Positions 3 through 42,782 of a DNA stretch of 46,289 nt are shown here, piece after piece. The notes below the pieces were generated by a model. The model did not search any database. It was given only the letters and a program-made list of their open reading frames with translations, and was not told where the DNA came from. How positions within the stretch are numbered: the first letter of the stretch is position 1; each line of letters starts with the position of its first letter. The position numbers and the translations under genes are program-made. Source of the stretch: Candidatus Poribacteria bacterium (GTDB lineage Bacteria > Poribacteria > WGA-4E > WGA-3G); NCBI GenBank assembly GCA_003635305.1, contig PYJE01000068.1, forward strand, positions 21,882 through 68,170. The letters are read 5' to 3'.

Positions 3-539
3 GTGCAACTTAAGTTAGGTCCCTCCTACGGAATCTACCGATTCAAAGCCTTCCCAGCTCCCTATCACGACTTCACCATCACCGTCAAGAACATTGGCAG
101 TGAACAAGCGGATTTCGGCATCACCCTCGGCAAGCGGTTTCCCGAAGTCGTTGATGGAGAGCGGGTGCCCTTTTTCTACGACTTTTTTCCCCATCGCATC
201 GCCGCGCGGCGTTACGGCGAAGGATGGAACGACACATTGCCGCCTGGGTTTCGTGAACCTCGGCACCCAAAAACCGTATGGAAGACTCGGGAACTCCAGG
301 GAATGGCGGTGCATTTCAATCAGGGACATTTTCAACTGTTCGCAGAAGGTGAATTACGCGCCGATTTCCACGACCCGGGCTTTGCCCCCATTGAAATTAT
401 CGGATTTGTGATTGTGGGAACCGAAAATGTTGTCGGCACCGCGTGGGCAGATGCATTCACCCTTTCCGGCCCCGCGCTTGAAGTTTCGCCTAAAGCAAAA
501 TTGGCGACAACCTGGGGGAAACTCAAAAAAGGAAAATGA
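3..539 (+). CDS. Probable secreted beta-rich protein (5' truncated by the window) with C-terminal KLATTWGKLK tail; paralog of the next two genes
   Basis: Open frame from the window edge. Shares 'FFPH.IAA.R', 'GHFQLFA.G', 'IIGFVI.G', 'WADAFT.SGPAL.VSP..K..TTWG.LK' with 821-1531 and 1566-2270. Confidence 0.85.
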   Translation: MQLKLGPSYGIYRFKAFPAPYHDFTITVKNIGSEQADFGITLGKRFPEVVDGERVPFFYDFFPHRIAARRYGEGWNDTLPPGFREPRHPKTVWKTRELQGMAVHFNQGHFQLFAEGELRADFHDPGFAPIEIIGFVIVGTENVVGTAWADAFTLSGPALEVSPKAKLATTWGKLKKGK

Positions 540-757
540 CAGCACTCGTCAATCTGCCTATGAAAACTACCCTCTCATCGGTAAGAGGGAGCTCCTCAGC
601 CGCCGCAATGGAGCGGATATGAAGAACATTGGCGGGACCTTGATGATGAAAACATCATCAGATACATATTATCAAGCGGGCAAACTAGGATCCGTACGGC
701 ATCGGCCAGACAATCCGGAAGCGGTACGATTGCATTCGCTTGAATTAAACCTCAACT

Positions 758-790
758 CTGCGAGGGGAGGGGAATTCACTCCCCTCGCAG
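758..790. repeat. Perfect 12-bp inverted repeat (hairpin), REP-like or terminator-like
   Basis: ctgcgaggggag (758-769) / ctcccctcgcag (779-790), 9-nt loop. Confidence 0.6.
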
Positions 791-820
791 TCTCTCAGCA
801 CCGGTGGAGAATTGTGAAAA

Positions 821-1531
821 ATGGTTCATATAGCAACTATCTTTTTACTCCTTATATTGACTGCCGCTGTCAGTGTCTCTGCTGAAGCAGGTTGGTGGCG
901 GGATGACTTTCATACAAAAGCGTTAGAAAATTGGTGGATAGAACCCGAAAATTTCGTCCAAGAGTCCGTTTGGCGGGTGCAAGATGGATTTTTAACGGCG
1001 ACGATTCAGACAGAATGGGCCGTGAAATACGAACTCTTCGGATTCAGAGCCCTGCCACGTCCATATCATCAATTCATCGTTCAAGCAGAGAACCTCGGCG
1101 GTGAAGGCGCGAATATCGGCCTCGGACTCGCAAAAATCTTCCCTGACGCACCGGGAGCAAAGTGGTTTTTCTACCTCTTTTTCCCACATCAAATAGCCGC
1201 AACCCGTTTTGATGCAGACCATAAGAATGCCCCCTTTCTGGTTCGCGTTCCGCAGCATCCCGACACCTTCTGGGATACCTGGGAACTTGAGGAACTCGAA
1301 GTGCGTTTCACCGCAGGACACTTTCAACTGTTCGCCGATGGCACGCAGCGCGCAACATTCCAGGATGCCGATTTTTCGTTCATCGACATTATTGGCTTCG
1401 TGATAGAGGGAAACAACCACCGAAAAGGCAGGGTATGGGCAGATGCATTTACTATCTCCGGCCCCGCGCTTGAAGTTTCACCCACCGCCAAAATGACTAC
1501 CACCTGGGGATACCTCAAGAACCAACCCTAA
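821..1531 (+). CDS. Secreted beta-rich hypothetical protein with C-terminal KMTTTWGYLK tail
   Basis: Signal peptide (MVHIATIFLLLILTAAVSVSAEA). 'WRDDF' start typical of concanavalin/DUF1080-like folds (inference). GGAG upstream. Confidence 0.85.
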   Translation: MVHIATIFLLLILTAAVSVSAEAGWWRDDFHTKALENWWIEPENFVQESVWRVQDGFLTATIQTEWAVKYELFGFRALPRPYHQFIVQAENLGGEGANIGLGLAKIFPDAPGAKWFFYLFFPHQIAATRFDADHKNAPFLVRVPQHPDTFWDTWELEELEVRFTAGHFQLFADGTQRATFQDADFSFIDIIGFVIEGNNHRKGRVWADAFTISGPALEVSPTAKMTTTWGYLKNQP

Positions 1532-1565
1532 TGACGAGGGTTTGCCATCGGAGGACCGGAAAAAC

Positions 1566-2270
1566 ATGAAAAGCCGCATACACATCTTGATAGACATTGT
1601 GGTAATTTCTGTGGGTATAGTTTTTTTTACAGCTGCTTTCGCAGGCACCTGGCGGGATGACTTTAACGCAGGAGATGCAGAAAGTTGGTGGATAGCGGCC
1701 GAAGAGTCCGTTTGGCGCGTGCAAGATGGATTTTTAACGGCGACGATTCAGACAGAATGGGCTGTGAAATATGAACTCTTCGGCTTCAGAGCCCTGCCAC
1801 GCCCATATCACCAATTCACCGTTCAAGCAGAGAACCTCGGCGGTGAAGGCGCGAATATCGGACTGGGACTCGCAAAAATCTTCCCTGACGCACCAGGGGC
1901 AAAGTGGTTTTTCTACCTCTTTTTCCCACATCAAATAGCCGCAACTCGTTTCAACGGCGAAAACGGGAATGCCCCCTTTCTGGTTCGCGTTCCACAGCAT
2001 CCAGACACCTTCTGGGATACCTGGGAACTTGAGGAACTCGAAGTGCATTTCACCCCAGGACACTTTCAACTGTTCGCCGATGGCACGCAGCGCGCAGCAT
2101 TCCAGGATGTCGATTTTTCGTTCATTGATATTATTGGCTTCGTGATAGAGGGAAACAACCACCGAAAAGGCAGGGTATGGGCAGATGCATTTACTATCTC
2201 CGGTCCCGCGCTTGATGTCTCGTCCAAAACGAAATTGGCAACGACATGGGGAAAACTCAAGCGTCAATAA
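1566..2270 (+). CDS. Secreted beta-rich hypothetical protein with C-terminal KLATTWGKLK tail; recent tandem paralog of 821-1531
   Basis: Signal peptide ending AAFA-GTWRDDF. nt 1703-2215 nearly identical to 961-1473. Confidence 0.85.
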   Translation: MKSRIHILIDIVVISVGIVFFTAAFAGTWRDDFNAGDAESWWIAAEESVWRVQDGFLTATIQTEWAVKYELFGFRALPRPYHQFTVQAENLGGEGANIGLGLAKIFPDAPGAKWFFYLFFPHQIAATRFNGENGNAPFLVRVPQHPDTFWDTWELEELEVHFTPGHFQLFADGTQRAAFQDVDFSFIDIIGFVIEGNNHRKGRVWADAFTISGPALDVSSKTKLATTWGKLKRQ

Positions 2271-2411
2271 AGCATCTTCTGTAGGAGGAACGCCCGGTCC
2301 CGACGCTTTGGAACCGCAGTAACCGGCAGCTCCTCTCCCGAAACAACTCGTGTTCGTTTTTTGAATCTTCATTAGCGGCTTAATAGCAGTAGAAGGAAGC
2401 ATCACACCTGC

Positions 2412-2440
2412 GATAGGCGCGCTTCCAAAACGCGCCTACC
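2412..2440 (-). repeat. GTAG-type REP-like palindrome, family B (GTAGGCGCGxTTxxAAxCGCGC)
   Basis: gataggcgcgcttccaaaacgcgcctacc; related copies at 17318, 27932, 34308, 41241, 41292, 41879, 43629. Confidence 0.8.
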
Positions 2441-5525: not shown

Positions 5526-7148
5526 ATGTTTAAATCCAGCACCACTCTACAAAAACGTGTAGGGATGCTTTTACTTTTCGTCGGGCTCATCGCTGTCGCG
5601 GGGCTCGTCATCAACCGGGGCTCAGTCATCTTCGCCCCCGGGAGCGCGGACACTCCCATCAACCGGGGAGGCGAGCACTTCCTGGTGCCAACGGTTCTCG
5701 CGCAAACCAACGAACCTTTTCAGCATTCCGAGGATTTCCAGGCTCTGGCGCGCGCGAATCGAGCGTTTATCGCGCTTGTTGAGCAGACGCGCCCATCCGT
5801 TGTCAAAATCCAGACTGCGAGAGCGATTAACTTCCGCGCAACAGATAGGAATGACAACTTTTTCCGGTTCTTTTTCGACAGCCCGCTGCCCCGAGGCGAT
5901 GAAGAACGCCGTCATCTTCAACGCGGGACCGGCTCCGGCGTGATTGTCAGTGATGACGGCTACATTCTCACGAATAATCACGTCATCGAAGGCGCAGACG
6001 AAATTACCGTTGTCCTCTCAAATGAAAGGCAATACAAGGCGGAACTCATCGGCCGCGATCCGGCCGGCAGCGGTGCCGGCGGCAGTGATCTTGCCGTTCT
6101 CAAAATCGAGGCGGAAGGGCTCCCCGCGATTCCCTTCGGCGATTCGGATGCCCTCGAAGTCGGCGAGTGGGTCATCGCGATTGGGACACCCCTAGAATTC
6201 TCGCAGACTGTCACACGCGGGATTGTCAGCGCGAAAGACAGACCTGGGTTTACCATGAGAGATTACGCGCAATTCATCCAAACTGATGCGCCGATTAATC
6301 GCGGCAACAGCGGCGGCGCGCTGATTAACATCCGAGGCGAACTCGTCGGCATTAATACCTTAATCGCTACCAGCGGTTTCACCACCGGAAACATCGGCAT
6401 CGGGTTCGCCATTCCAAGCAACATGGCACGCAGTATCATGCCGCAACTCATCGAAAACGGGAAGGTAGTGCGCGGATGGCTCGGCATCAGCATGAACCCA
6501 GTCGACTTCGATCTGGCCGAAAAACTCAAAATGGAGAGCCCTCACGGTGCCCTAGTCACGCAAGTCGGCAAAGGCAGCCCGGCGGAAAAAGGCGGCATCC
6601 AACGCGGCGATGTTATCATTGCATTTGACGGTGTGAAAATCCGGAACTTCGCGCACCTGAAGCACGTTGTCGGCGCGGCAGGTGTCGGAAAATCGGTTGA
6701 CGTGACAGTCCTCCGAGCCGGAAAAGAAAAACGGCTCACCATAAAATTAGGCAAGCGGACAGAAGCAGTCTTAGAGAGACTCGAGGACTCGCCGCACACC
6801 GTTCCCGACACGGCAGAACCTCAAACCGATTTTGCCGGGCTTCGCGTGCAGGCACTGACACCGGCCTTTATTGAACGCTACGGCTACGCACCAGACGAAA
6901 CCGGTGTCATCGTCACGCACGTCGAGAAGGGGAGCAATGCCGAGAAGAAGGGCATCACCCCCGGAACCCTCATCCAAGAGATGGAATACACACCTATTGA
7001 CAAACTGGAGACATATTCCGCTTTGGCCCAGCGGTTGGCAGCGAGTGAGGAAAAGCGCATCCTCCTCTACGTTAAATTCCCAAACGGAGAGGGAGCCGGT
7101 TACGTTACCTTAAACCTTGCCCTAGACGACGAAAAATCCGAACGGTAA
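5526..7148 (+). CDS. degP: Do/DegQ (HtrA) family serine endopeptidase with two PDZ domains
   Basis: 'GTGSGVI', 'TNNHVI', 'DLAVLKI', 'IQTDAPINRGNSGGAL' triad; two PDZ domains; N-terminal TM/signal segment. Confidence 0.92.
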   Translation: MFKSSTTLQKRVGMLLLFVGLIAVAGLVINRGSVIFAPGSADTPINRGGEHFLVPTVLAQTNEPFQHSEDFQALARANRAFIALVEQTRPSVVKIQTARAINFRATDRNDNFFRFFFDSPLPRGDEERRHLQRGTGSGVIVSDDGYILTNNHVIEGADEITVVLSNERQYKAELIGRDPAGSGAGGSDLAVLKIEAEGLPAIPFGDSDALEVGEWVIAIGTPLEFSQTVTRGIVSAKDRPGFTMRDYAQFIQTDAPINRGNSGGALINIRGELVGINTLIATSGFTTGNIGIGFAIPSNMARSIMPQLIENGKVVRGWLGISMNPVDFDLAEKLKMESPHGALVTQVGKGSPAEKGGIQRGDVIIAFDGVKIRNFAHLKHVVGAAGVGKSVDVTVLRAGKEKRLTIKLGKRTEAVLERLEDSPHTVPDTAEPQTDFAGLRVQALTPAFIERYGYAPDETGVIVTHVEKGSNAEKKGITPGTLIQEMEYTPIDKLETYSALAQRLAASEEKRILLYVKFPNGEGAGYVTLNLALDDEKSER

Positions 7149-12541: not shown

Positions 12542-12712
12542 TTTACGTTATGCGATGCTTGCATGAATTAAGACAGAAACCGACAAGTTTTTTGTCACCA
12601 GAAATTGTTGTTTGTTTTCGGCCCGTTTAGAAACACGCTAAAAAATCACTACGCCTCTCTGGCAAATGTCTGTGCCCGCACCTCGCGCGCGCCAGACAGG
12701 AGAAGAACCTAC

Positions 12713-15700
12713 GTGAAGAAACGCATATCTTTCGCCAAAACAGACGTTCGCACACCCCTACCGAATTTGATTGAGACGCAGCAGCGCGCTTACGATGCCT
12801 TTTTGCAGCGCGACACGTTTCCGCACAAGGACAGCGGCCTGGCGGCAGTCTTCAACGAAGTCTTCCCTATCGCTGACTTCAACGAAGTCTCGCGCCTTGA
12901 ATTCGTCCATTACCAACTCGGCGAACCGAAATATACCCTTGACGAATGCCTCGCCCGCGGGGTTACCTACCAGGTCTCCCTCACCGCGCGGCTCCGCCTC
13001 GTCGTCTGTGAGAAAAACGCAGAAGACGAAGAACCGCACGTCGTTGATATCCGCGAGTCCGAAGTCTATTTCGGCGAAGTACCGCTGATGACTGAAAACG
13101 CCAGCTTCATCATCAACGGCAGCGAACGCGTCATCGTTAACCAATTGCACCGCTCACCCGGTGTCATCTTCCTCAATAAAACGCTCCCAGGCGGACATCG
13201 CTCCCCCACGGCGCAAATCATTCCTTACCGCGGGGCATGGATAGAATTCGAGGCGGACTCTAAAGATACCCTTTCCGTCCGGTTAAACAAACGTCGCAAG
13301 ATACCCGCCACCGTCCTGCTCCGCGCACTCGGGTGGGAGACGGATGCCGACATCTTGAAACTGTTCGCCGAACCAACGCGCGTGATGCTCTCCGGGTGGC
13401 GCGTCACTGAAGTAGCACTACCCGAATGTCCAACCCAAATCGATGCACTCTTAACCGCGGCGGAACATCGAAAGTTGGATGCCGACTACCCCGGCGCGGT
13501 AGCTGAGCTTTTCTATGAAGTCGTCTCCGCGTCCGATGATGCAACGTGCCCTGTCGCCGTCGGCGACAGGCTCACGCCTAACGAGTGGGCAAGGCACCGC
13601 AAAACGTGGAAAGATACCACCTTTGCACGCATCTGGCGTATCGCCAAGCATTACCGCCCCGACTATCCTTACCCCATCGGCGACATCGTGGCCGATGCAA
13701 CCTATCAGAAGGCACGGAAGGATTACCCGGGGATTGAGATAGAACCGTGCTATCGCGTCACAGCTGTCACTGACAAAGGGTGTCCGCTGGAAGAAGGACA
13801 GATGCTGACATCCAAGGAGCGCACCCGCGCACGCCGGAAGTGGAGAGGATTCACGACAGAACGACTCCTGCGCGTCACGAAACTCCTCAATACCGGATGC
13901 CCCTTGAACGTCGGCCAGCACCTCACGCCTACCGAATACACCGAAATGCTCGGAAAGCATCCTGACGCTTTCAAGGCAGAACGGATTGAATCGACAGACA
14001 TCGCCGAAACTATCGGCAGCGTCTGCGCTGAACCTATCGCCGACCCGAGGACTGACGAACTGCTAGTGACAGCGAATACGCTACTCACCGAAACAGAAGT
14101 CGAACGGCTGAGGGGTGCCGGTGTGGAGATGCTCACGGTGTTGACACCCGAATCCGCCAAAGCTCTCCGTTTTTTACGCAATACCCTCGAACGCGACAAA
14201 GAATCGGACTACGAGGCCCGCATCCAGGCCACCGGACGGCAAAGCGAAACACCCATTCAAGATGTCGCCCTGCTCAATATCCACTCTGTCCTCAGACCGG
14301 GGGAACCGGTGAGTATTGAGGCGGCGCACCGGCAACTCGCTTGGCACTTCTTCGACGCGCACCGCTATGACTTGGGGACTGTGGGACGCTACAAAGTGAA
14401 CTCAAAACTGCGACACCTCTCCGTATACGGTGAGCCGCCCGATGAGAAACACCGAACGTTGCGCCCGGAGGACATCGCGGCGACACTCCGGCACCTGCTT
14501 GATGTCCATAACGATCCTTCGTTGATAGACGACTTGGACCATCTCAGTAACCGTCGTGTACGCGGTATCGGCGAATTATTGGAGAACCAGTTCCGCATCG
14601 GCCTATTCCAGATCCGGCGCGCCACGCGCGAACGCATCTCCTCCGCCGATATGAGCAACTGCATGCCGCCAATGCTGATTAACCCGAAGCCGCTCATGGT
14701 TTCACTCCGCGAGTTCTTCGGTTCAAACCAACTCTCGCAGTTCATGCAGCAGGTAAATCCGCTCGATGAATTGACGCACAAGCGGCGTATCTCTGCCATC
14801 GGCCCCGGCGGACTCTCGCGCGATAGAGCCACCGCCGCCGTTCGCGATGTGCATCACACACACTACGGACGCGTCTGTCCCTTGGAGACACCGGAAGGCC
14901 CTTCTATTGGCCTCCTCGTATCGCTGGCGTGTTATGCGCGTATCAATCCTTACGGGTTCATTGAGACTCCTTATCACAGAGTGGTGCCCGGCAAGTCGAT
15001 GGCTGATATGGAAATTGAATACCTCACCGCCGATAAGGAAGACAAGGCCCGCATCGCCGCCAAAACGATACCGCGCGACGCGAAAAGGGGAGAAACGCCT
15101 GACACGGGCATCCAGCTGCCCGCCCGAAAAGGCGAAGATGTGCTTGCCTTACCCCTGTCCGAGGTAGACTACGTCGGCATCTCGCCATCACAGATTGTCG
15201 GTGTTTCCGCAGCACTCGTGCCTTTTTTAGAACATGAAGACGCGAACCGCGCCCTCATGGGCGCGAACCATCAACGACAAGCAGTGCCGCTCATCAAGCC
15301 CGAAGCACCACTCGTCGGCACCGGCATGGAAGCACGCGTCGCCCGGGACTCAGGGGCACTGTGCATCGCCAAACGCAGCGGCACCGTCGAAAGCGTCTCC
15401 GCCGCGGACATCATCATCCATACCGATGAACCCCTGCACGCAGACATCGGCGAACAACACAAGAGTGAGATGGGCTACGACCGGTATGAACTCCACACTT
15501 TCAAGCGGAGCAACAGCGGCACCTGCATCCATCAGCGGCCCATCGTCTCCGTCGGCGACACAGTGGAAGCAGGCGACATCATCGCCGACGGCACTTCTAC
15601 CGATGAAGGCGAACTCGCGCTCGGCAGGAACGTCCTGTGCGCCTATATGCCGTGGGGCGGACACAACTATGAGGACTCCATACTCATCAGCGAAAGCCTT

Positions 15701-28622: not shown

Positions 28623-29681
28623 ATGCGCCATTTAACCAGCAGCTATAGAAATCTGTCCTTACAGTCCCTCGCAATGCTATGGCTCATTGTCGCATTACCT
28701 CCTGTTGCCGCCGAGGAAATAACCGTCCTCGCTGTCGGCGATATTACCATCGGCACGCGGTTGACACACCTCATTGAAACGGAAGGCGCGCGCGTCTTTT
28801 TTCAGGGAACCGCGAAACTCATTCAGTCCGCAGACATCGCCACCGCCTCGCTCAACACCAGCATCTCTGAGAGAGGCGAACCGCGCCACGGCATTGAGCA
28901 TCCGTTTCGGGCGGCACCGGGACTTGGCCGCGCCCTCGCCAACGCAGGATTCGATGCCATCACACTCGCTACGCCGCACAGCATGGACTTCGGCGTAGAA
29001 GCACTCCACGACAGCCTCGCCGAACTCAAGGCGTTCAACGTCACGCCAATCGGTGCAGGGCTGACAGCAGCGGCGGCGCGGCAACCGGCATGGGTAACCG
29101 TGAAAGGCACGGAAAAACAGGTGGCGTTGCTCGGCTATTATCGGCAAAGCGACTTCGCGCAATATACCGAAGACCCGGTCGCGTATGCCGTTTACAGCGA
29201 CATGGTAAACGCTGTCAAACAAGCACGCCACAAGGCAGCACTCGTCATCGTCTGGTTGCACTGGGGCACCGCCGCATCCGATGAAGCGCAGCGAGAAACG
29301 GCTCGCGGCAGACAGCAACTCTTCGCGCAAATCCTAATTGACGCAGGCGCAGACATGGTGCTTTGTCAACAGTTGCATACCCTCGGCGGAATGGAAATTT
29401 ATCGCGGGAAACCGATTGTCTACAGTCTCGCCGATTTCCTTTACGACGCTTACGCCAAACAGCACGCGCGCATCGTCATCCCGAAGGCAACGTTCGTCAA
29501 CAGCACGCTGGTATCCATAGAACTGATTCCAATCGCGACAGAGACACCGGATACCCCCTATCAACCGCAACTCCTCCACGGTGCAGCCGCCGTTGAGACG
29601 TTGCAAGACTATCAACAGCAGTGCGAGAAGTTCAACACGGAGGTAACCCTTGAAGGAGAACGTGGATGGATTCGGCCCTAA
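28623..29681 (+). CDS. CapA family (PGA-synthesis-like metallophosphoesterase fold) protein, secreted, with degenerate metal motifs
   Basis: 'LAVGDI', 'AGFD.ITLATPHSMDFG', 'HWG', 'IDAGAD', 'GKPIVYSL'; signal peptide. Confidence 0.8.
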   Translation: MRHLTSSYRNLSLQSLAMLWLIVALPPVAAEEITVLAVGDITIGTRLTHLIETEGARVFFQGTAKLIQSADIATASLNTSISERGEPRHGIEHPFRAAPGLGRALANAGFDAITLATPHSMDFGVEALHDSLAELKAFNVTPIGAGLTAAAARQPAWVTVKGTEKQVALLGYYRQSDFAQYTEDPVAYAVYSDMVNAVKQARHKAALVIVWLHWGTAASDEAQRETARGRQQLFAQILIDAGADMVLCQQLHTLGGMEIYRGKPIVYSLADFLYDAYAKQHARIVIPKATFVNSTLVSIELIPIATETPDTPYQPQLLHGAAAVETLQDYQQQCEKFNTEVTLEGERGWIRP

Positions 29682-31587
29682 TACCCTGCACCGTGGATTC
29701 ACGCCGAAAGTGGTCATCGCTGCCCTCATCCTCATACCCCTCAACGTCTTCTGGATTATTCAACTGGAGGTAGTCCGCTATACACACCCAACGCTCATCC
29801 ATCCGCTGTCCAACGTTATCTTCATCCTCTTTTGGCTGATGGTGCTCAGCGCGATGCTCAGTGCATTTTCAAAGCACTTGCGACTGTCAGGTGCCGAATT
29901 GCTCACACTCTATGTCATCTTGTGCATCGTCTCATCGCTCTGCTCGCACGATATGATGGAGATACTCGTCACAATCCTAGGACATCCGTTTCGGTTCGCA
30001 ACACCCGAAAACGAGTGGGCGCAACTCTTCTGGAAAGAACTGCCGACGTGGCTGACAGTGCAGGATGCAAGCGTCTTGTCCGGTTATTATGAAGGGAATT
30101 CTACGTTTTACGAAAAGGCACACCTCCGCGCGTGGGCCGGACCCGCCGCATGGTGGACGCTCTTCATCCTCGTGTTGATGGGCGTTATGCTCTGCATCAA
30201 CACGCTCCTCCGGCTCCAATGGACAGAACGCGAACGGTTGACATACCCGATTATCCAACTGCCGCTCGCAATGACGGAGGGACAAACAAGTTTCTTTAAA
30301 AACAAATTGATGTGGATAGGTTTCAGCATCGCCGCTGGCATCAGCATCCTGAATCTGTTGAACTCGATTTACCCGGCGGTGCCGTATCTCCCCATCAAAC
30401 GGCAAAACATTCACCAATATTTTACCGGCAGACCTTGGAATGCGATGGGCGGCGTGCGGCTCTCGTTTTATCCGTTCGCCATCGGCATTAGCTATCTCAT
30501 TCCGCTGGACCTGCTGTTTTCCTGCTGGGTCTTCTATTGGCTATATAAGTTTGAACTCATGGGCGGCAGCATCATCGGCGTGCGAAGCCTACCCGGCTTT
30601 CCGTATGCCGATGCACAAGCACTCGGCGCATATCTCGCGCTCCTCGGCAGCGCAGCGTGGATAGGCCGCTCGCACTTGAGATACATCGCCGCCTGCATGC
30701 GTGACAGCGGTGCGGACATGCGACACGAACCGATGCCCTATCGTATCGCTATCCTCGGCATTGTCGTCGGCATGCTCTTTTTGACGGTATTTTCGTATCA
30801 GGCAGGCATGTCGCTCTGGGTAATTCCCCTTTTCTTCGGGATTTACTTCCTACTGGCGACGATGATTGCACGGTTGCGCGCCGAGTTGGGGTTTCTTGTC
30901 CACGATTTGCACCAGATCGACCCGCACGGGACACTCGTTACGCTGTTTGGCACACAGCGGTTGACACCGGGAACCAAGGCGGTCTTCTCACTTTACATGT
31001 TCTTTAACCGTGCCTACCGCGCGCATCCGATGCCGCAGCAGTTGGAGGCATTCAAAATCGCCGAACGAAGGCAAATCAATCCGCGTCATACCGTCGCCGC
31101 CGTCTTCTTCGCTACTGCTATCGGTGCAGTCGTCGTCTTCTGGTTGCTGTTAGACAGTTACTATCGGCACGGTGCCGAGACCGGCTATTACGGCCCGTGG
31201 GCATTAGGCTTCGGCAGAGGTGTGTATCGGCAACTCGAAAACTGGCTGAACTATCCGCAAGGCACGGATGTCCCTGCGCTGGCGTTCGTGGGCGGCGGCT
31301 GCGCCTTTGCTGTCGGGATGATGGTGTTGCGCACCCGATTTTTGTGGTGGCCCCTGCATCCACTCGGCTATGCCATGGCGAACAGCTGGGGGATGTACAA
31401 CCTCTGGAGCTGCATCTTTGTCGCGTGGATAGCCAAGGCACTCGTGCTGCATCAAGGCGGGCTGAAGGCGTATCGACGGACAGTGCCACTCTTTCTCGGG
31501 CTCGCCCTCGGTGACTATCTCTGCGGCAGCCTGTGGAGCATCGGCAGCATCATCGCGAACACGACGCTCTATCAATTTTGGCCGTAA
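29662..31587 (+). CDS. Polytopic membrane protein, DUF6785/DUF6784-like putative transporter
   Basis: Many TM helices; 'QW...ERL.YPI.QLP', 'WWPLHPLGY', 'GG...YR...P.FLGL..G'; GTG start after AAGGAG. Confidence 0.7.
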   Translation: MDGFGPNTLHRGFTPKVVIAALILIPLNVFWIIQLEVVRYTHPTLIHPLSNVIFILFWLMVLSAMLSAFSKHLRLSGAELLTLYVILCIVSSLCSHDMMEILVTILGHPFRFATPENEWAQLFWKELPTWLTVQDASVLSGYYEGNSTFYEKAHLRAWAGPAAWWTLFILVLMGVMLCINTLLRLQWTERERLTYPIIQLPLAMTEGQTSFFKNKLMWIGFSIAAGISILNLLNSIYPAVPYLPIKRQNIHQYFTGRPWNAMGGVRLSFYPFAIGISYLIPLDLLFSCWVFYWLYKFELMGGSIIGVRSLPGFPYADAQALGAYLALLGSAAWIGRSHLRYIAACMRDSGADMRHEPMPYRIAILGIVVGMLFLTVFSYQAGMSLWVIPLFFGIYFLLATMIARLRAELGFLVHDLHQIDPHGTLVTLFGTQRLTPGTKAVFSLYMFFNRAYRAHPMPQQLEAFKIAERRQINPRHTVAAVFFATAIGAVVVFWLLLDSYYRHGAETGYYGPWALGFGRGVYRQLENWLNYPQGTDVPALAFVGGGCAFAVGMMVLRTRFLWWPLHPLGYAMANSWGMYNLWSCIFVAWIAKALVLHQGGLKAYRRTVPLFLGLALGDYLCGSLWSIGSIIANTTLYQFWP

Positions 31588-31740: not shown

Positions 31741-34281
31741 ATGGAAACGCAAGAAAGAGCACACTCACAAAACGAACAGCAGCGCGAACCTCGCGCAACC
31801 GAAAAAAAACCGAACCGCGAGTTCCCAGTGCTTCCACTAGATGACTTGGTGGTTTTTCCGCATATGCCGCCCGTTCCGCCGTTTCCGCCGCACCACGTCG
31901 CGCTCTCCGGCGAAATGGCAACAGCCGCCTTGGAAGCCACGACGCGGAGCGAACGCGGGCTTTGCATCTTCCGGCCCAACCCCGACATCACCTATGACGG
32001 GATACCAAACATCACCAAGGCAGACCTGAGTCCTATCGGGAGCCTCGTCCACATCCTACGCTTTAAAAAAGACGATGGCGATGTCCTCTTCCTCGCGCAC
32101 GGACGCGAACGCGTCAAGATTGAGGAGATTCTCTCCACCGAACCCTTTATCTCCGCGCGCGTCGCTATCGTCAACAGCGAAGCCGAGATAGTCGATGGAC
32201 TTCACCAGAATTTGGAACTCGAAGCACTCGTTCGCAGCAACGAGGAAATGTTCCAGCGGATTGTCGCAATGTCCGGCCGCTACCAAGAAGAATACGGCGC
32301 GATTACCAAAACGATAGAACAGCCCGGCCGCCTCGCCGATTATATCGCCGCCGTGCTTGACTTAAAATCCACCGATAAGCAGCGGATTTTAGAGGCCGTG
32401 TCCGTCACGAAACGGTTGAATTCCCTCGCCATCATCCTCGCACGGGAACTCGATTTGCACGAATTGGAGAATAAAATCCAGCACAGCGCGCAATCCGTCA
32501 TTAACAAAGGCCAGCGCGAATACTATCTCCGAGAACAACTCAAAGCCATTCAGACAGAACTCGGCGAAGCGGAAGACCTCGGGCTGGAAATCGATGAACT
32601 CCGCGAACAACTCCGCACCACCGTCATGCCCGAAAAGGCGAAACAGACAGCAGAGAAGGAACTCAACCGCCTCGCGAAAATGCAGTCCTTCTCACCCGAA
32701 TCCACCGTCTCGCGGAATTACCTCGATTGGCTTCTCAACCTACCCTGGGAAGTCAGCACCGAAGATAGTTTAAACCTGCGTGCTGCAAAAACCGTTCTTG
32801 ACGAAGACCACTACGGCTTAGAGAAAGTAAAAGAGCGGATTGTCGAACACCTCGCCGTGCGAATGCTCCACACGCGGCGCGCAAAGGATAACAGTGACAC
32901 CGAACGCGACCGGCACGCCGAAACCAGCGCGGACGTTCCCGCGCAAAAGCCCGCGGCTTTTCTCACGTATGAGATGAAAAGCCCCATTTTCTGCTTTGTC
33001 GGGCCACCGGGTGTCGGCAAAACGTCCCTCGGCCGCTCCATCGCCCGCGCCATGGATAGGAAGTTCGTCCGCGTATCCCTCGGCGGTATGCACGATGAAG
33101 CAGAAATCCGCGGGCATCGCCGCACCTACATCGGCTCAATGCCGGGGCGCATTCTGAAAGGACTCCGCACCGCCGAATCCAACAATCCCATCTTCATGCT
33201 TGATGAGATTGACAAACTCGGCACCGATTTCCGCGGCGACCCGGGTGCAGCCCTGCTTGAAGTGTTGGATCCGGAGCAGAACCACGCCTTCACCGACAAC
33301 TACCTCGATGTCCCGTTCGATCTTTCCAAGGTGATGTTCATCACCACGGCGAATCAATTGGACACGATTCCCATCGCGCTGCGCGACCGGATGGAGACGC
33401 TTGAACTCGCCGGCTATACCACCAACGAGAAACTGCAGATTGCCAAGCAGTATCTCCTCCCGCGCCAACTCACCGCGAACGGCCTGACAGCGGAACAGCT
33501 GCACATTGACGACGCGGCAATTGATACCGTCATCAGCGCGTATACCCGGGAAGCAGGCGTGCGGAATTTGGAGCGTGAACTCGGCACCCTCTGCAGGAAA
33601 GAAGCACGCCGTATCGCTGAAGGCATGACAGCCGGAACAACGAAGATTTCGGCGAAAAGCATCCCCGATTACCTCGGGCCAGAAAAGTTCACCGCCGAAG
33701 TCGCCGGCCGCAAGGCGGAAATCGGCATCGCCACCGGGCTCTCTGTCACCCCCGCAGGCGGCGAAATCCTGTTCGTGGAGGTAGCCACCTATTCCCGCAC
33801 CGCTGGTGAGAGAGAACGCGCGCAGCCATCACAACTCCGCATCACCGGACAACTCGGAAATGTGATGCAGGAATCGGCGCAGACCGCGCTCAGCTACGTC
33901 AAATCGCAAGCGGCCGCACTACACTTTAACCCGGGCGCGTTGGATACCGACATCCACATCCATGTGCCCGCCGGCGCGATTCCAAAGGACGGGCCCTCTG
34001 CAGGCATTACGATTGCTACCGCACTCGCTTCCATCGCCACGGGGAAAAGCATCAGTCCGGATATCGCGATGACCGGCGAACTCACACTGCGAGGCAGAGT
34101 CTTGCCCATCGGCGGACTCAAGGAGAAAATCCTCGCCGCCAAACAAGCAGGCATCAAGAAGATTATCGTCCCGCGCGGCAACGAAAACCATTTTGTCGAC
34201 ATCCCGGAAGACATTCAATCCGGGATAACGTTCCGCTTCGTGGAATTTATGAGCGAAGTTTTCCAGGAGATATTCTCATGA
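31741..34281 (+). CDS. lon: ATP-dependent Lon protease
   Basis: 'GPPGVGKTS', 'RGHRRTYIG', 'LDEIDK', 'PKDGPSAG' (Ser), 'IGGLKEK' (Lys); GGAGG RBS. Confidence 0.96.
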   Translation: METQERAHSQNEQQREPRATEKKPNREFPVLPLDDLVVFPHMPPVPPFPPHHVALSGEMATAALEATTRSERGLCIFRPNPDITYDGIPNITKADLSPIGSLVHILRFKKDDGDVLFLAHGRERVKIEEILSTEPFISARVAIVNSEAEIVDGLHQNLELEALVRSNEEMFQRIVAMSGRYQEEYGAITKTIEQPGRLADYIAAVLDLKSTDKQRILEAVSVTKRLNSLAIILARELDLHELENKIQHSAQSVINKGQREYYLREQLKAIQTELGEAEDLGLEIDELREQLRTTVMPEKAKQTAEKELNRLAKMQSFSPESTVSRNYLDWLLNLPWEVSTEDSLNLRAAKTVLDEDHYGLEKVKERIVEHLAVRMLHTRRAKDNSDTERDRHAETSADVPAQKPAAFLTYEMKSPIFCFVGPPGVGKTSLGRSIARAMDRKFVRVSLGGMHDEAEIRGHRRTYIGSMPGRILKGLRTAESNNPIFMLDEIDKLGTDFRGDPGAALLEVLDPEQNHAFTDNYLDVPFDLSKVMFITTANQLDTIPIALRDRMETLELAGYTTNEKLQIAKQYLLPRQLTANGLTAEQLHIDDAAIDTVISAYTREAGVRNLERELGTLCRKEARRIAEGMTAGTTKISAKSIPDYLGPEKFTAEVAGRKAEIGIATGLSVTPAGGEILFVEVATYSRTAGERERAQPSQLRITGQLGNVMQESAQTALSYVKSQAAALHFNPGALDTDIHIHVPAGAIPKDGPSAGITIATALASIATGKSISPDIAMTGELTLRGRVLPIGGLKEKILAAKQAGIKKIIVPRGNENHFVDIPEDIQSGITFRFVEFMSEVFQEIFS

Positions 34282-36518
34282 GAAAGCACACAGGCCCCAA
34301 CCACACAGGAGGCGCGCTTTCAAAGCGCGCACACCGCAACGTCATCACACTGCTCGTGCTGTTCACGGTGATGCTGACATCCGCGCACGCAAACATCATG
34401 ACAAGCGAAACGCCGCAGTTCCTCAAAGATGTCGCCCCGATTTTGGATAAACAGGGATGCTCCATCGGAATGTGTCACGGCAAATTCGGTGGGCAAGGCG
34501 GGTTCAACCTCTCGCTGCTCACGCTCAACCCCGAATCTGATTACAAACCGATTGTCCATCACAACCGCGGCAGACGTATCAACCTGCTTGAACCGGAACA
34601 AAGCCTCTTCCTGCTCAAGCCGACCGGGCAGGTGCCGCATGAAGGCGGCCTGCGGTTTGAGCCGGGCTCTGATGAGGCGTTAACGATTCTGCTCTGGATT
34701 GAAGCCGGTGCTCCGTTTCCCACCGATGCACCACGCCTCGCAAAATTGGAAATTCAGCCCAACGAACTCGTGCTGACATCGCCCAACGCGCCTGCACAAC
34801 TGGAAGTGCTCGCGCACTGGACAGATGGGAGTGTAGAAGATGTCACAGCGCAAGTTGTCTATGAATCGAAGGACCCGGCCATCGCCGAAGTCAGCGAGAC
34901 AGGTGAAGTTACGCGTCTCCGCTGGGGTGGCACCGCCATTCTCGCGCGCTACCTCGGCGAGGTAACCGCGGCGTTCATCACGCTGCCACGCGAGACAGCC
35001 ATCGCAGACACAGATTTCCCCGCGACAGCGAACTACATTGACGAACGCGTCTTCGCAAAACTGAAGAAATTGAACGTTCAACCCTCGGCACTCATCACCG
35101 ATACCGAGTTCCTCCGCCGAGTTTATCAGGATACCATCGGTAGGTTACCGACACCGGCAGAAATCCGCGCGTTCCTTGCCGATACGCATCCAGACAAACG
35201 CGCGCGGTGCATCGACAAACTGCTCGATACTTCGGCGTGGATAGATGTGCGCACGCTCGCGCTCGCCGATATGCTGCGTATTCATCCCCGCGACTTGGGC
35301 AACGGCGCGTTCGGCGAACGCGGCGCGACGCTCTTTCACGAATGGGTGCGCGATACCGTCGCGCAGAACAAACCTTACGACGCATTCGTGCACGAACTCA
35401 TCACCGCACGCGGCAGCACTTATCAGCACGGCCCGACGAACTACTACCGCATCGAACGGCAACCCGCAGGTAGAGCCGAAACAACCGCACAAGTGTTCCT
35501 TGGCATTCGTCTCAGCTGCGCGCGATGCCATAAACATCCGTTCGACCGGTGGACAACCGACGATTACTGGAATTTCGCCGCATTCACGGGGAAAGTCGGC
35601 ACCCGCACCGGTGAACTCTACAACGAACAGGTTGTCTACTACAATCCGACAGGGCGCGTCATCAACCAATCCGTTCAGGGGAACCGCGGCGAAGTCGCGC
35701 AGCCGACATTCCTCGCCGGCACAACACTCCCCGCAAACTATCAAGGCGATGTGCTACACCGCCTCGCCGATTGGATGACCTCGGGGACGAACCCTTACTT
35801 CGCCAAAGCCACCGTCAACCGCATCTGGAGCCACTATTTCGGACGCGGCATCGTGGAACCGGTGGACGACATGCGCGCCACAACGCCACCGAGTGTGGAC
35901 GGATTGCTGGAAGCACTCGCCGCTGCTTTTGTCGCAAGCGGGTTTGATACCAAGCACATCATCCGGCAGATACTCAATTCGCGCACATACCAACTCTCCG
36001 CCGTGCCGAACGAGACGAATGAACTCGATGACAGGTTCTTCTCGCGATTCACACCGCGCCCAATGAACGCGCACATCTTGCTCGATGTGCTTAACGATGT
36101 AACTGGCACACAGGAGAAATATGGGCGGTATCCGATAGGCACGCGCACAGTGCAACTGCCGCTGCCTGTCAGTTCCCGCTTCTTGTCGCTGTTCGGCCGT
36201 TCCCAGCGGGAGTTCCTCGGCAACCTCGCACCGAAACTAGAACCGACGTTGACGCAGGCACTCCATCTCATTAACGCGCCGTATGTGCAGAAAAAATTGC
36301 GGAGTCGGGACGGGGCCCTCACGCGCTTATTGAAAACGCATCATGAGAATAGGGAACTCATTACCGAACTGTATCTGCGCACGTTGAGCCGTTTCCCGAC
36401 AGAAAAGGAACTTGCAACGGCGGAAGCCTACCTTGCCGAGAGCCCGAAACGGCGCGAAGGAAGCGAAGACTTGCTGTGGGCCCTCATCTCCTCGCGTGCG
36501 TTCCTTTTCGTCCAATGA
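34278..36518 (+). CDS. DUF1549/DUF1553 (planctomycete cytochrome-c-type) secreted protein with Ig-like domain
   Basis: 'CSIGMCHG', 'FLRRV..D..GRLPT..E', CxxCH 'CARCH', 'NPYFA...VNR.W...FGRG.VEP.DD', 'LTQAL.L.N'. Confidence 0.9.
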   Translation: MRKHTGPNHTGGALSKRAHRNVITLLVLFTVMLTSAHANIMTSETPQFLKDVAPILDKQGCSIGMCHGKFGGQGGFNLSLLTLNPESDYKPIVHHNRGRRINLLEPEQSLFLLKPTGQVPHEGGLRFEPGSDEALTILLWIEAGAPFPTDAPRLAKLEIQPNELVLTSPNAPAQLEVLAHWTDGSVEDVTAQVVYESKDPAIAEVSETGEVTRLRWGGTAILARYLGEVTAAFITLPRETAIADTDFPATANYIDERVFAKLKKLNVQPSALITDTEFLRRVYQDTIGRLPTPAEIRAFLADTHPDKRARCIDKLLDTSAWIDVRTLALADMLRIHPRDLGNGAFGERGATLFHEWVRDTVAQNKPYDAFVHELITARGSTYQHGPTNYYRIERQPAGRAETTAQVFLGIRLSCARCHKHPFDRWTTDDYWNFAAFTGKVGTRTGELYNEQVVYYNPTGRVINQSVQGNRGEVAQPTFLAGTTLPANYQGDVLHRLADWMTSGTNPYFAKATVNRIWSHYFGRGIVEPVDDMRATTPPSVDGLLEALAAAFVASGFDTKHIIRQILNSRTYQLSAVPNETNELDDRFFSRFTPRPMNAHILLDVLNDVTGTQEKYGRYPIGTRTVQLPLPVSSRFLSLFGRSQREFLGNLAPKLEPTLTQALHLINAPYVQKKLRSRDGALTRLLKTHHENRELITELYLRTLSRFPTEKELATAEAYLAESPKRREGSEDLLWALISSRAFLFVQ

Positions 36519-40289: not shown

Positions 40290-40377
40290 AGCAGGATTTA
40301 CAAGATGAGGGGATATCTAGCGACAGAATCTCTTTTTACGCCCGTTGAACCTAAATTCAATAGATTGGTTATTCATC

Positions 40378-40815
40378 ATGAAGACACTTATTAGCGCATG
40401 TCTGCTCGGTGTCCGGTGCCGTTATGACGGTGGACATAGCCGAAGCACTGCCGCCATAAAACACCACGAAACGGAGCCGCTCATCTCAATCTGCCCGGAA
40501 CAACTCGGCGGTTTGCCCACACCGCGGCCGCCAGCCGAAATTGTCGGCGGCGATGGCGAGGATGTGCTCGCCAACAAAGCAAAAGTCATAACAGAGGCAG
40601 GGGAGGACGTGACAGACGCATATCTGCTAGGCGCGCTTGATACCTTGCGCATTGCCCAATCGCACGGCGCGACGCAGGTTATCCTGAAAGCGCGGAGTCC
40701 ATCTTGTGGCTGTGGCGCGATTTATGATGGGACATTCTCCGGCACGCTGAAAACAGGCGATGGGGTAACAACGGCTCTGTTGAAACAGCACGGGATTGAG
40801 GTAATTTCCCGGTAG
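40378..40815 (+). CDS. DUF523 (2-thiouracil desulfidase-like) protein
   Basis: 'ISACLLGVRCRYDG', 'CPEQLGGLPTPR', 'LKARSPSCG', 'GDGVT.ALL'. Confidence 0.9.
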   Translation: MKTLISACLLGVRCRYDGGHSRSTAAIKHHETEPLISICPEQLGGLPTPRPPAEIVGGDGEDVLANKAKVITEAGEDVTDAYLLGALDTLRIAQSHGATQVILKARSPSCGCGAIYDGTFSGTLKTGDGVTTALLKQHGIEVISR

Positions 40816-40835
40816 GAGAGACATCTCTGTCTCGA
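40812..40835 (+). repeat. Family A REP-like element whose GTAG supplies the DUF523 stop codon
   Basis: gtaggagagacatctctgtctcga; TAG 40813-15 is the stop codon. Confidence 0.8.
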
Positions 40836-40876
40836 TGGGGTGATGCAGCACTGCTGAAACGAAACGGCGCAGATGG

Positions 40877-41863
40877 CTATATCCGCCCTACCGCATCGCG
40901 ATAGGGCCCGTGGACAGCGAAAGCCAGCACAGTCTTCAGCAATTCCTGCGGATTGCCTGTATCGTAACGCCGCCCTGCAACGCGATAACCTCCCATTCCT
41001 TCGCGCCGAATCAGTTCCGCCATTGCATCGCGCAGTTGGATTTCACCGTGCGTCACGATATTGTCTCGGTAGTGATGCTCCAAGATGTCAAACAGGAGCG
41101 GTGTGAGCAGATCGATGCCGAAATTACAGAGGTACTGCTGCGACGAAAGCCCTTCCACGCGTAGTGTTTCCCGCGCAACGTCTACCGTCGGTTTTTCGGC
41201 GATGTGGGTTAAGTGGAAAAGTCTATTCTCGGCGGTTCCGGTAGGCGCGGTTTGTAACCGCGCACGTTGATGCCCATTTTCATCGGTTCCGGTAGGCGCG
41301 GTTTCCAACCGCGCACCACGATGCCCATGCACAATTCCGTTGAGATGCAGTTCGCTCTCATCGCAAATGTCAAGGCTAGTGACAGATGTGCCTATCTGCG
41401 CATAAATGTCAACCAATTGTTTCGCGCAGGAAACATCTGTCTCTGATAAATAGAGATGATCTCCGAGCAGAATCATGACTGGCTCGCCATCGGCGAATGC
41501 TTTGGCGCAGTAGATGGCGTGCCCGAAGCCTTGCGGTTCGGCCTGAATCGCGAAGTGCAACCGTTCGCCGATTTCTGCTAACCTATCCGCCTGCATCGCC
41601 AATGCCGCTTTCTCGCGAATGGCGGCGGGAACGACACCGGAAAAATAGTCGGCAATCGGCTCAACTTGGTGCGGCTGCGCGACGAGGCACACCTCCTCTA
41701 TCCTTGCCGTTAACGCCTCCTCAATAATGAGTTGGATAATCGGTTTCGCGAAGCCATCCTGCGCGATAATCGGAAAGAGTGCTTTTGGCACGGCTTTGGT
41801 GGCAGGAAAAAGACGCGTGCCGTAGCCGGCGATGGGAATAATAGCCTTTTTAATTCGGCGCAC
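40877..41863 (-). CDS. galU: UTP--glucose-1-phosphate uridylyltransferase-like sugar nucleotidyltransferase
   Basis: 'KAIIPIAGYGTRLFPATKAVPK', 'Q.EP.GFGHAI', 'LGD', 'EKP', 'GEIQL.DA', 'YDTG'; GTG start after GAGG. Confidence 0.75.
   Translation of the reverse strand: MRRIKKAIIPIAGYGTRLFPATKAVPKALFPIIAQDGFAKPIIQLIIEEALTARIEEVCLVAQPHQVEPIADYFSGVVPAAIREKAALAMQADRLAEIGERLHFAIQAEPQGFGHAIYCAKAFADGEPVMILLGDHLYLSETDVSCAKQLVDIYAQIGTSVTSLDICDESELHLNGIVHGHRGARLETAPTGTDENGHQRARLQTAPTGTAENRLFHLTHIAEKPTVDVARETLRVEGLSSQQYLCNFGIDLLTPLLFDILEHHYRDNIVTHGEIQLRDAMAELIRREGMGGYRVAGRRYDTGNPQELLKTVLAFAVHGPYRDAVGRI
41233..41328 (+). repeat. Tandem 51-bp duplication, each unit holding a family B REP, in frame within the galU-like gene
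   Basis: gtaggcgcggtttgtaaccgcgc (41241) and gtaggcgcggtttccaaccgcgc (41292); protein reads 'GARLETAPTGT...RARLQTAPTGT'. Confidence 0.88.
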
Positions 41864-41878
41864 GGTTCTGAATTCCTC

Positions 41879-41905
41879 GTAGGCGCGCTTGAAAAGCACG
41901 CCTAC
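41879..41905 (+). repeat. Family B REP-like palindrome
   Basis: gtaggcgcgcttgaaaagcacgcctac. Confidence 0.75.
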
Positions 41906-41917
41906 CAGAGGGAAACG

Positions 41918-42023
41918 GAAGCAAGATTCACAAGATTCACAAGATTTCCAGGATAACCTCACTTGTTTCGACAACGGCCCCTATAATCCTGCGAATCTTG
42001 GAAGTCCCGCAAATCTTGCTTCA
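41918..42023. mobile_element. MITE-like element with inverted arrays of 9-nt CARGATT units
   Basis: Left gaagcaagattcacaagattcacaagatttccaggat; right (reverse complement) tgaagcaagatttgcgggacttccaagattcgcaggatt; related end at 40287. Confidence 0.55.
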
Positions 42024-42782
42024 GTCGCGCAACCCCTTGAGGTAGCCCCAGGTGGTTGAGAGTTTGCCGGCAGGTTCCACAGGCAAAGAATCGCTTTCGG
42101 ATTCAAAGTTCTGCTTCACCTCGGCTTCATCCAAGATCCTGTCGTAGATGCGAACATTGTCGATCATCCCGATAAGGTATCTGCCATCGTGTTCACTGCC
42201 GATGCGGCGTTCGTCCATGTTTTCAGGCGTGCCGCCCGCGGTGCCTTCGTCCATCAACTCGCCATCAACGTAGAGTTTGAGCTCATCCTCTTTGGTATCG
42301 CTGGTGTAAATGATGTGATACCAGGTCTCCGTCTCGGCGTTCATGCGAATCTTGACACCATCGTTTTTATGCACCTGAATCTGGTTGCCTTCAAACTTAA
42401 AATGGACTTTCCCAGCGGCCCACTGCCACGTGGAGACGATGCCTTGGATGCCGCCAAACTGGCCCTCCAGGGCCCAGCACTCAATAGACACCTTCTCAAA
42501 CGAACCGAGCGCGGGGATTTCAACGTAGTTCTCCGCATCGCCTTCAAACTCCATTGCATCCCCCATCGGGCCTTCGACGAACTTGAGTTTGCCTATCATT
42601 TCGGCATCGTTCTCGCCGAGGGCATCCTTAACGGTTTTGCCATCCAGATCAGCCTCATTGAGCGTATACATGGCGACGAGGCCGTCGGTGACGAAGTCTT
42701 GTGCATTCGCCGCGGTGACATAGCAAAGTGCCGTCAAGAGCAGGCAAAACGCACAGACTACGATATTTCTATTCATTTTCAT
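42021..42782 (-). CDS. Secreted LamG-like (concanavalin A jelly-roll) protein with C-terminal KLSTTWGYLK tail
   Basis: Signal peptide; 'WYHI..T', 'LYVDG', 'G.IDNVRIYDR.L...EV'; tail 'PVEPAGKLSTTWGYLK'. Confidence 0.9.
   Translation of the reverse strand: MKMNRNIVVCAFCLLLTALCYVTAANAQDFVTDGLVAMYTLNEADLDGKTVKDALGENDAEMIGKLKFVEGPMGDAMEFEGDAENYVEIPALGSFEKVSIECWALEGQFGGIQGIVSTWQWAAGKVHFKFEGNQIQVHKNDGVKIRMNAETETWYHIIYTSDTKEDELKLYVDGELMDEGTAGGTPENMDERRIGSEHDGRYLIGMIDNVRIYDRILDEAEVKQNFESESDSLPVEPAGKLSTTWGYLKGLRD

Follow-up and report, generated by a model that had tools for sequence, protein, structure and literature searches.

A conserved C-terminal tail on exported proteins of Candidatus Poribacteria and its possible tie to a T9SS-like apparatus

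Four genes in the window end in the same tail

The stretch of DNA analysed here (the window) comprises 46,289 nucleotides of a Candidatus Poribacteria genome (G000:C68:21882-68170, contig PYJE01000068.1); this genome, G000, is a 4.35-Mb assembly of 213 contigs with a completeness rating of 87%. The window contains four genes whose products end in the same short tail (Table 1), which in translation reads L-x-V-[E/S]-P-x-x-K-L-x-T-T-W-G-x-L-K and is followed by 2-4 residues to the stop codon. When all six frames of the window were scanned, T[TS]WG matched exactly 4 times, in each case 9-11 residues ahead of a stop. An earlier reading of the window from its letters alone (the sequence-only reading) had noted this shared tail, together with N-terminal signal peptides on the three complete proteins, and had proposed it as a candidate sorting signal; scan and translation bear out the tail on all four proteins, and the signal peptides are typical ones. 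The tail looks undescribed, and it looks like an address label for the cell envelope or surface. As an observation the tail is secure, while its function and its receptor are hypotheses. Poribacteria are uncultured sponge symbionts, dominant in many marine sponges, and the C-terminal signals known as LPXTG, PEP-CTERM and the C-terminal domains (CTDs) used by type IX secretion systems (T9SS) each led to dedicated envelope machinery.

Three of the four genes are paralogs, the first of which is cut by the window edge, with its 5' part broken up by a stretch of N immediately upstream in the contig. None of the three matched a Pfam family at E ≤ 1, and all fell below the gathering score of 3keto-disac_hyd / DUF1080 (PF06439). 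They do show remote similarity to DUF1080 proteins that carry the tail (hhalign, 96.6% over 171 columns, the shared tail contributing), and both their ESM Atlas neighbours and their structure rows are DUF1080-like clusters. When paralog 821-1528 was used as a query against a collection of genome contigs, no relative was found. The window clips a cluster of six paralogs: two more tail bearers lie upstream of it, at C68:18066-18743 and 20011-20721, and a sixth paralog frame, also upstream, ends in a TTWA variant.

In the case of the fourth gene, the product matches Laminin_G_3 (PF13385) at E 7.7e-18, with 65.5 bits against a gathering score of 27.6. A search returned 442 relatives of this LamG protein at E ≤ 1e-5, the best 120 of which are 250-273 residues long and all carry PF13385. 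Since LamG and DUF1080 are both jelly rolls, of what we take to be one concanavalin-like superfamily, the window's two tail families are probably related. The description of the carriers as unrelated in the sequence-only reading is thus too strong for these two families, given the hhalign result; genome-wide, the tail is found on clearly different folds.

Table 1. Tail-bearing genes of the window and their tails
Feature	Position	Strand	Basis
Open reading frame, C-terminal part of a DUF1080-like jelly-roll paralog, tail at end	3..539	+	translation; hhalign
Tail LEVSPKAKLATTWGKLK, then KGK and stop	477-527	+	six-frame scan, translation
Complete paralog, 236 residues: signal peptide 821-895, DUF1080-like body, tail	821..1531	+	translation, hhalign, ESM Atlas
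Tail LEVSPTAKMTTTWGYLK, then NQP and stop	1469-1519	+	six-frame scan, translation
Complete paralog, 81% identical to 821..1531, tail at end; likely start the ATG at 1566, signal peptide 1566-1655	1542..2270	+	translation
Tail LDVSSKTKLATTWGKLK, then RQ and stop	2211-2261	+	six-frame scan, translation
LamG (Laminin_G_3) protein, 253 residues: signal peptide 42699-42782, LamG over residues 84-223, short linker, tail	42021..42782	-	Pfam, translation
Tail LPVEPAGKLSTTWGYLK, then GLRD and stop	42036-42086	-	six-frame scan, translation

The tail marks the C-terminus of about 98 proteins with signal-peptide-like N-termini

To count the tail in the window's genome, a profile made from 46 tails was run over all reading frames of at least 40 residues (E < 0.05, domain score of at least 10 bits). 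This hidden Markov model count, a check that the sequence-only reading had proposed, gave 98 carrier frames, from which simple arithmetic puts the tail on an estimated 2-3% of the proteome. Plain patterns place it at the same site, beyond what chance would give: T[TS]WG.[LIVM][KR] has 50 matches in the six frames of the whole genome and 50 of 50 lie within 16 residues of a stop, while 48 of the 62 matches to [TS][TS]WG that fall at least 80 residues into a frame sit 8-14 residues ahead of the stop. The carriers tend to be short (the median frame has 274 residues), and tandem paralogs are common, with 31 adjacent pairs among the 98.

The logo of 97 tails anchored on W (counts beside the letters) runs L(56) [A40/P29] V(92) [E49/D17/S12] [P61/A28] x [G48/D22] over its N-terminal half and K(85) L(80) [A49/T32] T(80) T(76) W(97) [G77/A18] x [L60/I24/V8/M5] K(94; R 3) over its C-terminal half. 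Beyond the final conserved K there is only a variable, basic stub (R 29%, K 8%), of 1-7 residues in 95 of the 97 tails (mode 3) and of 9 and 21 residues in the remaining two. The tail is thus strictly C-terminal and has no transmembrane helix behind it, in agreement with the sequence-only reading. Internal occurrence, which that reading had named as a point against a sorting signal, was seen only where a T9SS CTD follows the tail directly, and we do not judge it damaging.

A signal-peptide-like N-terminus was found on 85 of 94 carriers, compared with 690 of 2752 non-overlapping background frames (25%) and 218 of 1030 size-matched ones; the rule is a crude one that chooses the best start codon, which raises the figures for carriers and background alike, and some of the 9 carriers that it missed have plain signal peptides without K or R. 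The expected co-occurrence of tail and signal peptide is therefore seen across the genome. It also bears on the idea that the tail serves to load cargo into a bacterial microcompartment or an encapsulin. This would suit a short C-terminal peptide behind a linker, and the microcompartment genes discussed for Poribacteria (PMC3909097) can be counted in its favour. We regard this as barely credible, because most carriers bear signal peptides and because they are lectin-like and carbohydrate-binding modules, not metabolic enzymes. Compartment targeting in general is largely ruled out on the same ground, as cargo would there be cytoplasmic and without a signal peptide.

The tail is shared by many families, conserved and predicted to be disordered

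Pfam scans of 91 carriers of the window's genome (46 + 45) returned at least 11 families. The best family was Laminin_G_3 in 43 of the 91, PD40 beta-propeller in 6, 3keto-disac_hyd (DUF1080) in 4 and CBM9 in 2; DUF4960, LTD, RhaB_D2/GH2_N/PA14-like, F5_F8_type_C, NPCBM, HmuY and CBM_4_9 were best in 1 carrier each, and 29 had no Pfam family. Only about 20-30 residues lie beyond the last Pfam domain. No Pfam model covers the tail in these 91 carriers or in the 4 window proteins, and no NCBIfam model covers it in the latter. In other Poribacteria, the ankyrin-repeat proteins P0266 and P0236 also end in the tail; of these, P0266 shows no clear signal peptide in its called form. Sponge-symbiont ankyrin proteins are believed to act on host cells.

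When the window's LamG protein was modelled with AlphaFold from 38 sequences, its core reached a predicted local distance difference test (pLDDT) score above 90, whereas the last 24 residues score 52-61 and residues 237-252 are drawn as a low-confidence helix detached from the sandwich. Likewise, in a model of a protein in which the tail precedes a CTD, the tail scores below 50 and the CTD about 90. Sequence conservation shows a different profile. Over the best 120 of the 442 LamG-protein relatives, which are 66-100% identical, the mean column entropy is 0.33 bits in the tail, 0.59 in the domain, 0.72 in the linker, 1.28 in the stub and 1.42 in the signal peptide, so that the tail is the most conserved segment among these 120 and the linker ahead of it is variable. 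A terminal peptide that is conserved and yet predicted to be disordered would behave like a linear recognition motif.

An integral strand of a single domain family, the other point that the sequence-only reading had named against itself, is ruled out, because proteins with LamG, beta-propeller, carbohydrate-binding, ankyrin and other domains all carry the tail, and because the tail is disordered in the AlphaFold models. In a looser form, the tail could be a structural or oligomerisation element (a cap, say, or a strand that a neighbour receives), spread by paralog expansion and without a sorting role. The large share of LamG paralogs, the many tandem copies and the two jelly-roll families of the window would fit, but we consider this very improbable, given the beta-propellers, HmuY, LTD, CBM9 and ankyrin proteins among the carriers, the disorder in two models, the variable linker between domain and tail, and a position that is tied to the C-terminus and not to the domain.

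A further possibility is that the tail acts as a receptor-independent anchor, in the form of an amphipathic C-terminal helix whose W, L, K and R residues hold it in a membrane leaflet or on an anionic glycan, in the way that C-terminal amphipathic helices anchor some penicillin-binding proteins. The low-confidence helix in the LamG model, the L, W, L spacing at i, i+4 and i+7, and the basic stub are all compatible with it. Nevertheless, the whole phylum shares an invariant W and an almost invariant T-T, G and K, whereas lipid-binding helices usually conserve character rather than sequence, and the conserved G and the V-E-P segment would be left unaccounted for; we therefore think such an anchor improbable.

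The tail occurs throughout the Poribacteria

The tail profile matched all 31 of 31 relatives of the genome, with 13 to at least 150 matches each (E ≤ 0.01), and, at E ≤ 1e-4, 151 of 151 sampled Candidatus Poribacteria genomes from 9 families and 22 genera. In deep-branching families the motif is the same and the stub has 0-4 residues, two proteins ending exactly at the K. Across 1.84 billion representative proteins the profile found 702 matches at E ≤ 1e-3. Among the best 150 of these, 141 end no more than 8 residues past the match; eight of the nine exceptions have a C-terminal extension of 11-59 residues that resembles read-through, and one is an unrelated repeat protein. Organism names were attached to 4 of the 10 hit clusters looked up, namely 3 Poribacteria and 1 sponge host assembly. 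A 44-residue alignment of the tail gave 395 protein matches, a list saturated by LamG proteins in which the sole organism named was Candidatus Poribacteria. Literature searches on TTWG, Poribacteria C-termini, laminin G, DUF1080 and T9SS found no description of the tail.

These sequence data are best explained by a C-terminal linear motif of about 17 residues that is specific to Poribacteria, spans the phylum and is borne by about 100 exported proteins per genome. In generalised form it is L-[A/P]-V-[E/D/S]-[P/A]-x-[G/D]-K-L-[A/T]-T-T-W-[G/A]-x-[L/I/V]-K, after which come 0-7 variable residues rich in arginine.

The tail directly precedes T9SS type-A CTDs in fusion proteins

In the window's genome, 28 frames carry an 87-residue CTD of the form LLPNYPNPFNPETW...RKMLIRK. 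By TIGR04183 this is a T9SS type-A CTD, with 34 matches in G000 and 19-67 in four closed genomes (E ≤ 1e-3); all of the 150 listed TIGR04183 rows are over the cut-off. The CTD model folds as a sandwich, for which Foldseek returned FlgD and Porphyromonas gingivalis PorU (6za2), with weaker likeness to PorZ and to a T9SS-bound substrate CTD; the likeness extends to the CTD of NucA. Two of the 28 CTD proteins have a degenerate tail (W -> L) directly before the CTD. About half of the 28 have another conserved segment in the 50 residues ahead of the CTD, RGI..L..LLA.L.P..T.LL.NYP, which is probably helical and makes a second junction element.

A DNA pattern for the fusion (T-W-G, then 9-18 codons, then NPFNPET) placed the tail directly before a CTD in 72 of the 151 genomes, whereas the reversed pattern, used as a control, matched in 0 genomes. 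The fusions fall in families f1 (68 of 99 genomes), f5 (2 of 5), f6 (1 of 2) and f8 (1 of 2), with 0 in f2, f3, f4, f7 and f9. In translation they show the intact motif, the K, 4-5 residues and then (F/L)QNYPNPFNPETW, so that the CTD starts at the exact point at which tail-only proteins stop. Intact fusions are found on WD40 and ASPIC/UnbV-like proteins (e.g. VAVEPTGKQATTWGKVKDAEVFQNYP followed by NPFNPETW), and across 77 aligned junctions the tail is conserved and the linker upstream of it is variable. In one Poribacteria genome, 10 paralogous genes with tail and CTD stand in tandem (OZ240244.1, ~655-676 kb). Searched across the genomes of 185,579 species, the pattern returned 117 stretches; of the 80 listed, 75 are titled Poribacteria and 5 'uncultured bacterium', and no other phylum is named among these 80.

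Since the tail lies directly before the CTD, it would become the mature C-terminus once the CTD is removed; and since it is conserved beside a CTD, a role other than export is suggested. This fits a published view of T9SS signals (PMC12618676), according to which T9SS C-termini hold separate secretion and targeting information that is read by specialised shuttle barrels.

The same fusions weigh on the idea that the tail is a self-sufficient outer-membrane secretion signal, a miniature replacement for the ~87-residue CTD that is read in the periplasm by a SprA-like translocon or a PorV-like shuttle. Such a signal would account for how carriers leave the periplasm. It would suit the extracellular type of many of them (carbohydrate-binding modules, NPCBM, F5/8-C, HmuY, LamG), as well as the numbers in the window's genome, where ~98 tail-only proteins stand against 28-34 CTD proteins; and in the two fusions of that genome the tail is degenerate, as if redundant beside a CTD. 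In widespread fusion families, however, the tail is kept despite the CTD, as though it had a job other than export, and its tight spacing to a free C-terminus would be needless in a mere translocation signal. We also know of no T9SS that accepts a short linear signal, and on balance we consider a self-sufficient export signal unlikely, though worth keeping in view.

Poribacteria encode PorU-, PorV/PorQ- and SprA-like proteins

Kamke et al. 2014 described Por-type C-termini in Poribacteria but no structural Por genes in single-cell genomes and left the pathway open (PMC3909097); beyond that paper, our literature search found nothing on T9SS machinery in Poribacteria. The genomes examined here hold PorU, PorV/PorQ and SprA-like genes, which bears on the 2014 question of Por-type secretion without structural genes.

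A PorU sortase is encoded by a 2695-residue frame of the window's genome (G000:C100:7866-15950; 511.8 bits against a cut-off of 420), and 10 of 10 genomes, drawn from 6 families, have 2-4 PorU-like genes each. PorV-like matches number 5-8 per genome, with 17 in one genome, and one PorV-like paralog is conserved in 41 of 41 genomes. In G000 there are five PorV/PorQ-family barrels, 4 of 5 over a subfamily cut-off, and all five end in F. A SprA-like frame of ~2100-2340 residues, detected as colinear partial matches that are all below the cut-off, is present in 10 of 10 genomes of these 6 families; in the drafts G000 and G033 it is broken up. In the former, at G000:C86:2622-9549, it appears as two overlapping frames of 1753 and 560 residues where closed relatives have one frame of ~2200 residues; this split is a frameshift or an assembly error. 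A further locus, G000:C95:8338-14838, is listed with this set of T9SS-like genes. GldL, GldM and GldN were each matched in 0 of 5 genomes, although their absence is not shown by this because no control genome matched either. It may be that Poribacteria, which stand outside the FCB (Fibrobacteres, Chlorobi and Bacteroidetes) group, have a T9SS-like system that lacks the customary motor.

With 2-4 PorU-like paralogs per genome, the tail could also be a processing or attachment site, at which a PorU-like C25 sortase or another peptidase cuts at the K and either stub or CTD serves as the leaving group. The residue ahead of the stub is K in 94 of 97 tails and R in 3, the stub is variable, and the tail stands at the place at which removal of a CTD is expected. 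On the other hand, some proteins of deep-branching families end at the K and therefore have no scissile bond there, and in the window's genome 26 of the 28 CTD proteins have no tail before the CTD, which argues against a general sortase site. We give the processing site little credence overall, and the narrower proposal that the conserved K is a sortase P1 residue in need of a leaving group is rejected, as two proteins end at that K.

Comparison with known C-terminal signals

In how it would work, the tail comes closest to a T9SS targeting element or to a docking peptide. The type-A CTD (TIGR04183 / PF18962 / Por_Secre_tail), which is read by PorV and removed by PorU, resembles it in being C-terminal on Sec-exported proteins and in marking tens to a hundred proteins per genome, and both occur in the same Poribacteria genomes. 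It differs in being an immunoglobulin-like sandwich of 70-100 residues, whereas the tail is a disordered linear motif of ~17 residues without a sheet, much shorter, as the sequence-only reading had said, than a T9SS CTD. Moreover, no TIGR04183/PF18962-type match was found on the 91 tail carriers (Pfam) or on the 4 window proteins (NCBIfam). T9SS type-B CTDs are reportedly folded, read by cognate PorP/SprF-like shuttle or anchor barrels and encoded beside the shuttle gene. They share with the tail the idea of a C-terminal element that is read by one of several paralogous outer-membrane barrels, which decides location, and Poribacteria have 5-8 PorV/PorQ-family paralogs per genome; unlike type-B genes, tail genes are unlinked to barrel genes.

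The signals of LPXTG/sortase, PEP-CTERM/exosortase and GlyGly-CTERM/rhombosortase are tripartite, with a motif, a transmembrane helix and a basic cluster. Like the tail, they are short, lineage-restricted motifs close to the C-terminus, shared within one genome by many exported proteins that are not related to one another, but a hydrophobic helix and a charged stretch follow their motif, where the tail is followed by 0-7 residues only. For lack of such a helix, and with no NCBIfam model of this kind on the 4 window proteins, a sortase or exosortase signal was rejected. So was the beta-signal of outer-membrane proteins, which is a terminal aromatic residue on a beta-barrel: tail carriers are soluble sandwiches and propellers, and their last residues are variable and arginine-rich with no terminal aromatic. 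In the dockerin-cohesin system, many modules are docked onto a scaffold, and the dockerin is a folded, calcium-binding domain of ~70 residues. Here too, one C-terminal docking element is common to many small modules; the analogy is one of function only, and dockerin has cohesin as its receptor, whereas no cohesin-like receptor was identified for the tail.

A possible docking or targeting tag tied to a T9SS-like apparatus

The reading that we tentatively favour ties the tail to a T9SS-like apparatus: on Sec-exported binding modules, most of them single-domain, it would be a C-terminal tag for docking or targeting that is specific to the phylum. Sec export would leave a folded module with a flexible tail, which an envelope receptor would read at, or a few residues from, the free C-terminus. 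In proteins with both elements, the CTD would take the protein through the SprA-like translocon, and a PorU-like sortase would remove it; the tail would thereby become the new C-terminus, as it is from the start in tail-only proteins. It would then set the final location, that is, retention at the outer membrane or the cell surface. The most plausible readers would be the PorV/PorQ-family outer-membrane barrels, by analogy with the shuttle and anchor barrels of T9SS, and this assignment is speculative. The outcome would be a symbiont coated with ~100 lectin-like, carbohydrate-binding and beta-propeller modules.

The proposal of a recognition motif for an uncharacterised export, anchoring or compartment-targeting system, as the sequence-only reading had it, is partly supported. 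Position, signal peptides and the range of families speak for a recognition motif; the system would not be wholly uncharacterised, given the T9SS CTD fusions and the PorU, PorV/PorQ and SprA-like genes, and the signal peptides speak against compartment targeting.

Several points weigh against the proposed docking or targeting tag. No receptor was identified. Genes for the tail are not co-located with PorV-, PorU- or SprA-like genes, contig C121 alone holding both, and there is no PorV-family gene near the array of 10 tail+CTD genes. Tail and T9SS-like genes are both present in every genome examined, and the phyletic pattern therefore cannot discriminate. Most CTD proteins of the window's genome (26 of 28) are without the tail, and the strict fusion pattern was found in 0 of 40 genomes of families f2, f3 and f4. 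Disorder in AlphaFold models is weak evidence. Finally, the way in which tail-only proteins would cross the outer membrane is unexplained, and they may stay periplasmic.

In a bolder form, which we think rather doubtful, the 17-residue disordered peptide would be a third class of signal for a T9SS-like apparatus without detected GldL/GldM/GldN, read at the free C-terminus by a dedicated PorV/PorQ barrel and alone delivering and holding ~100 lectin-like modules per cell on the surface. If a self-sufficient tail of this kind were read by such a barrel, phylum-wide surface display would operate through a linear motif and not a folded domain. If it is confirmed that T9SS-related systems can make use of a short linear element, as the tail suggests, such an element would be useful as a minimal display tag. 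Its carriers are glycan-binding and repeat proteins, of the kind thought to mediate contact between symbiont and host, and the motif gives a simple sequence handle with which the likely envelope and surface proteome of Poribacteria can be listed from metagenomes.

Other genes of the window

The genes around the four tail genes are housekeeping only, among them rpoB, rpoC, EF-G, Lon and HtrA. At 5526-7148 (+), 3 kb from the paralog cluster, lies a common housekeeping gene for an HtrA/DegP-type protease that has PDZ domains; PDZ domains read C-terminal peptides. RpoB (12605-17260) is long at 1551 residues, and so is RpoC (17429-23698, +) at 2089 residues, in which Pfam places Rpb1 domain 5 over residues 816-2017, a span that implies a very large lineage-specific insertion. 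Directly after rpoC, at 23765-25228 (+), an N6/N4 DNA methylase is fused to a Mrr-type restriction-endonuclease domain. The remaining observations concern a PSCyt2/PSD1 (DUF1549/DUF1553) protein at 34278-36518 (+), a pairing typical of Planctomycetes, and a DUF6785/DUF6784 protein at 29650-31587 (+), which adjoins a PGA_cap gene.

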